DNA of 11,176 nucleotides. Source: a virus. Its lineage: Duplodnaviria > Heunggongvirae > Uroviricota > Caudoviricetes. The DNA lies in the IMG/VR virus record IMGVR_UViG_2667527959_000006, positions 1 through 11,176 of that record, one strand, 5' to 3'. Under the pieces are notes generated by a model, which saw nothing but the letters and a program-made list of their open reading frames with translations, made no database searches and had not been told where the DNA came from. This document shows positions 1,016 through 1,324 of this stretch, one piece after another. A program made the position numbers and the translations under genes. The stretch's first letter is position 1, and every line of letters begins with the position of its first letter.

Positions 1016-1324
1016 TTAATATACGATCTGGTCTACATGATTACCAAAATCATCGTCGTCGTCCTCATCGCCACCATCTACAGATGGCCAATCAACAAAC
1101 CAGCCAGCGTAAAGATGCAGCGTTCGGAGAACATCACTTGCGGGAGCATCAAGGGTGTTAACGAATCCCATATAGCTATTGGGATTTGCCCCATCTATGG
1201 CTTCAGTGATCATGTCCTCGGTAATGTCACCGGAGATAATGCTTAAACGCCCGGAAACTTCTTCATTATCATCAAATTCGATAATGGCATCTCCGCCTAA
1301 TGGCGCTGCGATTTTAATCTGCAT
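1016..1324 (-). CDS. Small highly acidic protein (102 aa), function unknown; last gene of the dar operon
   Basis: ATG at 1324-1322 preceded by AAGGAG 8 nt upstream; the start overlaps the ddrB stop by 11 nt, suggesting translational coupling. By manual count about 23 Asp/Glu versus 3 Lys/Arg, with a DGGDEDDDDDF tract. It may correspond to the small ORF that follows ddrB on P1 maps; I do not assign a name. Confidence 0.7.
   Translation of the reverse strand: MQIKIAAPLGGDAIIEFDDNEEVSGRLSIISGDITEDMITEAIDGANPNSYMGFVNTLDAPASDVLRTLHLYAGWFVDWPSVDGGDEDDDDDFGNHVDQIVY

Follow-up and report, generated by a model that had tools for sequence, protein, structure and literature searches.

The darA operon region and the hxr gene

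We analyzed the 11,176-nucleotide stretch of IMG/VR record IMGVR_UViG_2667527959_000006 (the window hereafter), in which a P1-like phage-plasmid carries its darA antirestriction operon on the minus strand (Table 1). Start/stop overlaps are common throughout this operon, since lydA and lydB share 4 nt, lydB and hdf 23 nt, and darA and ddrA 4 nt; the overlap between ddrB and the gene that follows it, hxr, is therefore not special in itself. Positions 1-59 match the final 59 bp of the canonical IS1 of P1 at 100% identity, and a second, different IS1-family element at ~158-916 replaces isaB, which is absent here. This second element is 96.5% identical to a copy in phage Rac-SA53 and may be defective, since its insA-like frame has ATA for ATG and its ORFs are fragmented (54 aa and 107 aa). 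At the other end, positions 8432-11090 hold the cin invertase gene (186 aa) and, after it, tail-fiber variable-segment ORFs of 504 and 177 aa; in P1, this part corresponds by gene order to the invertible C-segment region, and it is unrelated to hxr.

Table 1. Features of the darA operon region, with positions in the window
Feature	Position	Strand	Description and basis
Stem-loop	920-951	-	12 bp, 8-nt loop; 65 nt 3' of the hxr stop; RNA fold z -2.3
hxr CDS	1016-1324	-	102 aa plus TAA stop; ORF calling, composition
Hxr acidic C-terminal tail, residues 81-102	1019-1084	-	SVDGGDEDDDDDFGNHVDQIVY; net -9, predicted disordered
Hxr folded core, residues 1-80	1085-1324	-	AF2 model, conservation, charge split; net -11
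hxr/ddrB 11-nt overlap	1314-1324	-	hxr ATG at 1322-1324, ddrB TAA at 1314-1316
ddrB	1314-4301	-	995 aa; Pfam PF18763, E 5e-39; domain description PMC5512222; mosaic identity profile
hxr Shine-Dalgarno AAGGAG	1332-1337	-	7 nt before the ATG (1322-1324), within the last ddrB codons
HELGHH zinc-binding motif, DdrB residues 872-877	1671-1688	-	Invariant across all aligned DdrB lineages
ddrA	4314-4679	-	
darA	4676-6595	-	
hdf	6597-7208	-	
lydB	7186-7629	-	
lydA	7626-7955	-	
lydC	8023-8304	-	

The ORF at 1016-1324 is the P1 gene hxr, already catalogued and hence not new as an object. Its product and P1 Hxr (P1_gp021, YP_006490.1) are of equal length and share 95.1% identity over 102/102 residues (megablast, tblastn), the substitutions including T40, D44, S81, and N95, and the PHROG 2292 profile matches the protein over positions 1-102 (E 5e-57). 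The E. coli plasmid NZ_AP018397.1 encodes an identical protein, and hxr is present in 504 plasmid records. Other names for the orthologue are odaA (protein OdaA) in P7 and ORFVIII of the darA operon (GenBank AJ000741). The only mentions of hxr that we found in the literature were an entry in a gene list and the call of a CRISPRi screen, citing Piya et al. 2017, that the gene is dispensable for plaque formation (PMC10695390). The six recognized Dar proteins (PMC12810830) do not include Hxr.

The preliminary description of this locus had singled out hxr for an extremely acidic product, and its manual count was exact: 23 acidic residues (17 Asp and 6 Glu) stand against 3 basic ones (1 Lys and 2 Arg), the run of five Asp occupies residues 88-92 within a DEDDDDD segment, and the computed pI (~4.05) and net charge (~-20) confirm the acidity. 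It was equally right about the strong ribosome-binding site, AAGGAG at 7 nt from the ATG, and about the 11-nt overlap with the ddrB stop. Its placing of hxr as the last gene of the antirestriction operon agrees with AJ000741 ("Bacteriophage P1 darA operon"), in which a terminator is annotated directly after ORFVIII. The stem-loop downstream of hxr in the window falls within this P1-annotated terminator region; its U-tract is weak, and a consensus terminator scan 3' of hxr gave no match.

The Hxr family and its linkage to ddrB

An exhaustive profile search (HMMER) of 1.84 billion representatives recovered only ~20 Hxr clusters, with full-length homologues of 96-100 aa that are 35-45% identical to Hxr and whose indels are multiples of three. 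The matches P0023 and P0026-P0028 (E 3e-5 to 4e-4, over multiple stretches) were set aside as long repeat proteins and likely spurious; P0027, for example, carries AGDVNGDG..ADIITGAG-type repeats that resemble the SGDITEDMI segment of Hxr. Among the close relatives in IMG/VR, hxr is intact in 80/80, and its dN/dS of 0.12-0.19 indicates purifying selection. Intact frames, triplet indels, and purifying selection together argue that hxr is a real gene and not a chance ORF. The dispensability of hxr in the CRISPRi screen (PMC10695390) and in earlier genetics, together with the narrowness of the family at ~20 clusters, would suit a functionless passenger ORF or an annotation artifact; this reading is nevertheless very improbable for a gene that stays intact under such selection, keeps a strong Shine-Dalgarno sequence, and is conserved down to ~20-25% identity.

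In the 80 close loci (L013-L092), otherwise nearly identical, the frequent variation is confined to the length of the poly-Asp run (window 1040-1075), which is built of GAC/GAT triplets and amounts to 4-9 Asp/Glu, and to a small number of other acidic tails with LLY at the end. The length variation looks like triplet slippage tuning the length and charge of the tail. A larger rearrangement was seen in one divergent locus (L011:8205-8759, P0015), where the Hxr domain is duplicated in tandem, giving a 184-aa protein with a TTG start and a 17-nt overlap with the ddrB stop; copy 1 has a short acidic linker and copy 2 the full acidic tail.

An Hxr homologue lies directly after every P1-type ddrB examined, i.e., in 80/80 close loci, in ~13 divergent loci, and in remote versions. 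The overlap is exactly 11 nt in all 80 close IMG/VR loci. In every divergent lineage recovered (L005, L007, L011, L012 from Cronobacter phage JK004, L093-L099, L173 from Citrobacter, and the small metagenomic contigs L003, L006, L008, and L009), the hxr start lies 11-17 nt ahead of the ddrB stop and (A)GGAG is found inside ddrB; hxr is probably translationally coupled to ddrB. The gene on the 3' side differs among loci (ssb, a porin gene, and others, with the IS element in the window).

A word-index search with the DdrB C terminus gave only fragments of close relatives, and pattern scans of the viral and genome collections were therefore used for remote loci. P1-sized contigs of Serratia, Pantoea, and Chimaeribacter carry DdrB-type peptidase genes (32-40% identical) followed by ORFs of 101-109 aa. 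Their overlap with the stop of the preceding gene is 8, +1, or -1 nt, their net charges are -16 to -20, and they share the core-plus-acidic-tail layout of Hxr. Profile alignment identifies these ORFs as Hxr homologues (hhalign probability 95%, E 3.9e-8, 75 columns), extending the conservation of the same architecture down to the ~20-25% identity level. An apparent homologue without ddrB (L004) turned out to be a decayed fragment that retains the last ~30 ddrB codons. Downstream of two distant peptidase relatives, from Uliginosibacterium (L180, 1993-2466) and Luteimonas (L181, 1657-2106), no Hxr-like gene was found, and the ~150-aa C-terminal extensions fused to these peptidases were rejected as an Hxr-like domain (hhalign probability 0.1%, not acidic). 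Altogether, these comparisons yield a new point: hxr is an obligate companion of the peptidase end of ddrB across all P1-type lineages, the remote ones included.

DdrB itself is a mosaic, with a DdrB-ParB domain (residues 36-167), a hypervariable middle (~433-800), and a zincin-like metallopeptidase domain (~801-995) that contains the HELGHH motif. Between lineages, identity is 80-100% over the N-terminal ~430 aa, 10-37% over ~433-800, and 43-60% over the C-terminal ~195 aa, and from this alignment profile the middle resembles a swappable effector cassette in a conserved frame. Pairwise identities of Hxr correlate best with those of DdrB 801-995 (Pearson 0.90, Spearman 0.81), then with those of the middle region (0.84 and 0.52), and least with those of the N-terminal 430 aa (0.53 and 0.23). 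Moreover, L011 has a recombination breakpoint near HELGHH, and the last ~110 aa of its DdrB change along with Hxr. This co-divergence is explicable by adjacency alone, because linked segments recombine together. A comparison of L007 with L012 shows how far the two genes can part: their DdrB C termini are 97% identical and their Hxr proteins 65%, with a dS of 1.5 for hxr against 0.19 for the DdrB C terminus. Thus, hxr alleles have been swapped as a unit at the ddrB/hxr junction, and tight co-adaptation with the DdrB C terminus is therefore not required.

Predicted architecture of Hxr, the repressor label, and DNA mimicry

The AF2 model of the Hxr monomer, built with a 10-sequence alignment, has a mean pLDDT of 75.6, with 71-90 in the core blocks and <50 for residues 83-102, and the predicted order of the core is beta-beta-beta-alpha-(beta)-alpha-beta. 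The same layout runs through the family: a core of ~75-80 residues, a tail of 20-25 aa that is acidic and predicted to be disordered, and a hydrophobic tip at the C terminus that reads IVY in P1-type proteins and, in most of the distant homologues, IVN. The tails are conserved in composition and not in sequence, with a net charge of -9 to -13 in all homologues; the folded core ranges from -5 to -11 and the whole protein from -12 to -23, so that acidity resides in both parts, and about half of the net charge of Hxr lies in the tail that AF2 predicts to be disordered. Being conserved, this acidity is probably a functional property. The family-invariant residues are P8, G53, V55, N56, L66, R67, W75, W79, and P80, and their hydrophobic or aromatic character (W75, W79, P80, VLR) suggests a binding surface or a core. 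Neither sequence and profile searches of PDB chains nor Foldseek searches of the PDB and of BFVD with the model gave a significant match. The conserved combination of acidic core, acidic arm, and hydrophobic tip is a design with no known fold relative, which is a new point.

The predicted fold bears directly on the database annotation. The P1 GenBank record describes Hxr as a "possible repressor; homolog of Xre" from 28% identity over ~58 residues to an Xre repressor, and this label has been propagated from there to related records. The GenBank entry is the one argument for an Xre-like transcriptional repressor. No helix-turn-helix (HTH) domain was matched in Pfam/NCBIfam by the protein itself (E up to 1) or by 10 family members (E up to 10), and no HTH fold was matched by the model in the fold searches; with three N-terminal strands and only two helices, the model is beta-rich and differs from the all-alpha five-helix fold of Xre. 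Moreover, a pI of ~4 and a net charge of -20 are incompatible with DNA binding, and a repressor would not be expected where hxr stands, as the final cistron in a late structural operon. A repressor function is thus hardly credible; we consider the annotation probably wrong and effectively refuted, which has, like the linkage to ddrB, the value of a new point.

The same acidity had led the preliminary description to propose a DNA mimic of the Ocr/ArdA type. In such a case, Hxr would be a stand-alone DNA or nucleic-acid mimic that blocks the DNA cleft of a type I restriction-modification enzyme or of another defense nuclease, either co-injected from the capsid or acting late in the infected cell. 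Several observations would suit this proposal: the carboxylate density of Hxr (23 Asp/Glu in 102 aa, pI about 4) is that of an Ocr-type mimic, the net charge of -12 to -23 is kept family-wide in core and tail alike, the other products of the operon are antirestriction proteins, and the polymorphic tail length and swapped alleles are what would be expected of a protein facing host variation. In size and alpha/beta content, Hxr would also fall within the range of the small acidic inhibitors Ugi, AcrIIA4, and Ocr. However, Hxr showed no likeness in sequence, profile, or fold to solved structures, known mimics included: no similarity to Ocr, an elongated helical dimer, was found in sequence or fold, and ArdA was matched neither as a Pfam domain nor as a fold. 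The best-conserved residues are hydrophobic or aromatic instead of acidic, about half of the charge sits in the disordered tail, and an independent inhibitor would not need strict linkage to ddrB. The preliminary description had taken a disordered acidic tail as a sign against mimicry, and this is borne out for the tail (about half of the charge, pLDDT <50) and not for the folded core, which is acidic too (-11).

Timing adds a further demand. The operon of hxr is a late one, so a mimic shielding DNA on its entry would have to be packaged, and the P1 virion proteome of 27 proteins determined by LC-MS/MS does not list Hxr, supplement included (PMC9024508). This absence is weak evidence, because only one of the four tryptic peptides of Hxr (4, 22, 41, and 35 residues) is of convenient size and the proteome applied a two-peptide cut-off. 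With no PDB match by sequence, profile, or fold, an Ocr/ArdA-type mimic is neither supported nor refuted by our analysis, and we regard stand-alone mimicry as unlikely, if still to be taken seriously.

A possible role of Hxr beside DdrB and comparison with known systems

We tentatively favor, with somewhat less than even confidence, a role of Hxr as a dedicated accessory or regulator protein of DdrB, made in step with it. Hxr would be produced with DdrB off the same late mRNA, probably by coupled translation, as a small, folded acidic domain from which a flexible, poly-acidic arm extends, tipped by hydrophobic residues. Hxr could then bind the C-terminal, metallopeptidase-bearing part of DdrB and act there as a chaperone or regulator, e.g., by keeping the peptidase or a DNA/NTP-binding surface inactive; alternatively, it might guide the processing of DdrB and its loading into proheads. 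The absence of Hxr from the virion proteome (PMC9024508) and its non-essentiality (PMC10695390) fit such a role as a cytoplasmic helper. As in immunity or inhibitor modules, the small ORF lies directly downstream and diverges with the adjacent C-terminal domain (0.90 versus 0.53 for the N-terminal region), a pattern that linkage alone could produce. A purely electrostatic partnership is not obvious, since DdrB is not basic (pI 5.5, with a C-terminal domain that is about neutral).

A poly-acidic disordered tail is typical for chaperones of basic proteins, and the operon encodes a strongly basic one: Hdf, with a pI of 10.2 and a net charge of +20 against the pI of 4.05 and net charge of -20 of Hxr, the two being the first and last Dar-related cistrons. 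Hxr could serve some other Dar or head component as an acidic chaperone, or as a partner that balances its charge; the candidate is Hdf, which would be kept off DNA in the cytoplasm, as by a histone chaperone, until it is built into the prohead. Both Hdf and DarA are head proteins that assemble early and contact DNA (PMC12810830), which would suit this proposal. Yet hxr is physically tied to ddrB and not to hdf, and the divergence of the two proteins is not parallel (L007 and L012: 78-79% identity for Hdf, 42-47% for Hxr). We consider this alternative improbable.

DdrB is reported to be processed to a 76-kDa form, probably by its own metallopeptidase domain (PMC5512222). In the window, DdrB contains AAIVN at residues 697-701 (~2199-2213), of which IVN (699-701) resembles the IVN/IVY tip of Hxr, and residues 1-701 amount to 76.6 kDa, against the 76 kDa of the reported form (PMC5512222). 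The pattern [IVL][IV][NY] is present in DdrB of several lineages at positions that are not conserved, and only the P1-type AAIVN701 fits 76 kDa. Because the position of the motif varies across DdrB lineages, this processing lead is purely hypothetical and may be due to chance.

A further reading, which we hold to be distinctly unlikely, would make Hxr the founder of a new fold family of acidic phage proteins; its poly-acidic arm and hydrophobic C-terminal tip would act in trans on a target, either the metallopeptidase of DdrB or a defense enzyme of the host. In one hypothetical version, the Hxr tip ([IV][IV]N/Y-COOH) would mimic the C terminus of auto-processed DdrB and thereby gate the processing and packaging of Dar cargo; alternatively, Hxr might represent a new class of co-injected DNA mimics that tryptic proteomics has missed.

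The Dar antirestriction system belongs to a model phage, P1, and to a widespread phage-plasmid backbone, and it is still being dissected; hxr can be put forward as a candidate seventh Dar-associated factor. If Hxr proved to be a mimic of DNA or a regulator of a peptidase, with a new fold, anti-defense biology would gain a modest but genuine addition, whereas a role limited to that of a DdrB chaperone would be an ordinary result.

Among known systems, P1 Hxr, P7 OdaA, and PHROG 2292 are the same gene as the one in the window, with the same 11-nt ddrB overlap and the same terminator region; the P1 locus differs in having isaB 3' of hxr, where the window has the IS1-family element. Pairs such as colicin-Im, barnase-barstar, and serralysin-Inh resemble the ddrB-hxr arrangement in that the gene of a small acidic protein overlaps that of the preceding enzyme domain and co-diverges with it; they differ from it because hxr alleles have been exchanged against a nearly constant DdrB C terminus, and the fold searches gave no homology of Hxr to known immunity or inhibitor folds. 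The tails of SSB (…DDDIPF) and T7 gp2.5 may offer another parallel, in which a poly-acidic, flexible linker follows the folded domain and ends in conserved hydrophobic residues; Hxr differs in having no OB fold and in its tip motif, [IV][IV][NY]. In SSB and T7 gp2.5, the hydrophobic terminus docks and the tail also serves as a nucleic-acid-like competitor. With Ocr (T7 gp0.3) and ArdA, Hxr shares a small size, strong acidity (pI ~4), a phage- or plasmid-borne gene, and an antirestriction context, but these mimics present a rigid DNA-shaped surface, whereas much of the charge of Hxr lies in a predicted disordered tail. Ocr is, moreover, made first after phage entry, and hxr by contrast belongs to a late operon. 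Within P1 itself, a counterpart is Ulx, a Dar accessory that aids the localization of DarB: it is likewise a small protein encoded beside the gene of a giant Dar effector, with the difference that the Ulx gene lies upstream of darB and its product is detected in virions, whereas hxr lies downstream of ddrB and its product is not (PMC9024508, PMC12810830). Ulx and DarB provide a precedent for the arrangement of an effector with a small helper that we propose for DdrB and Hxr.
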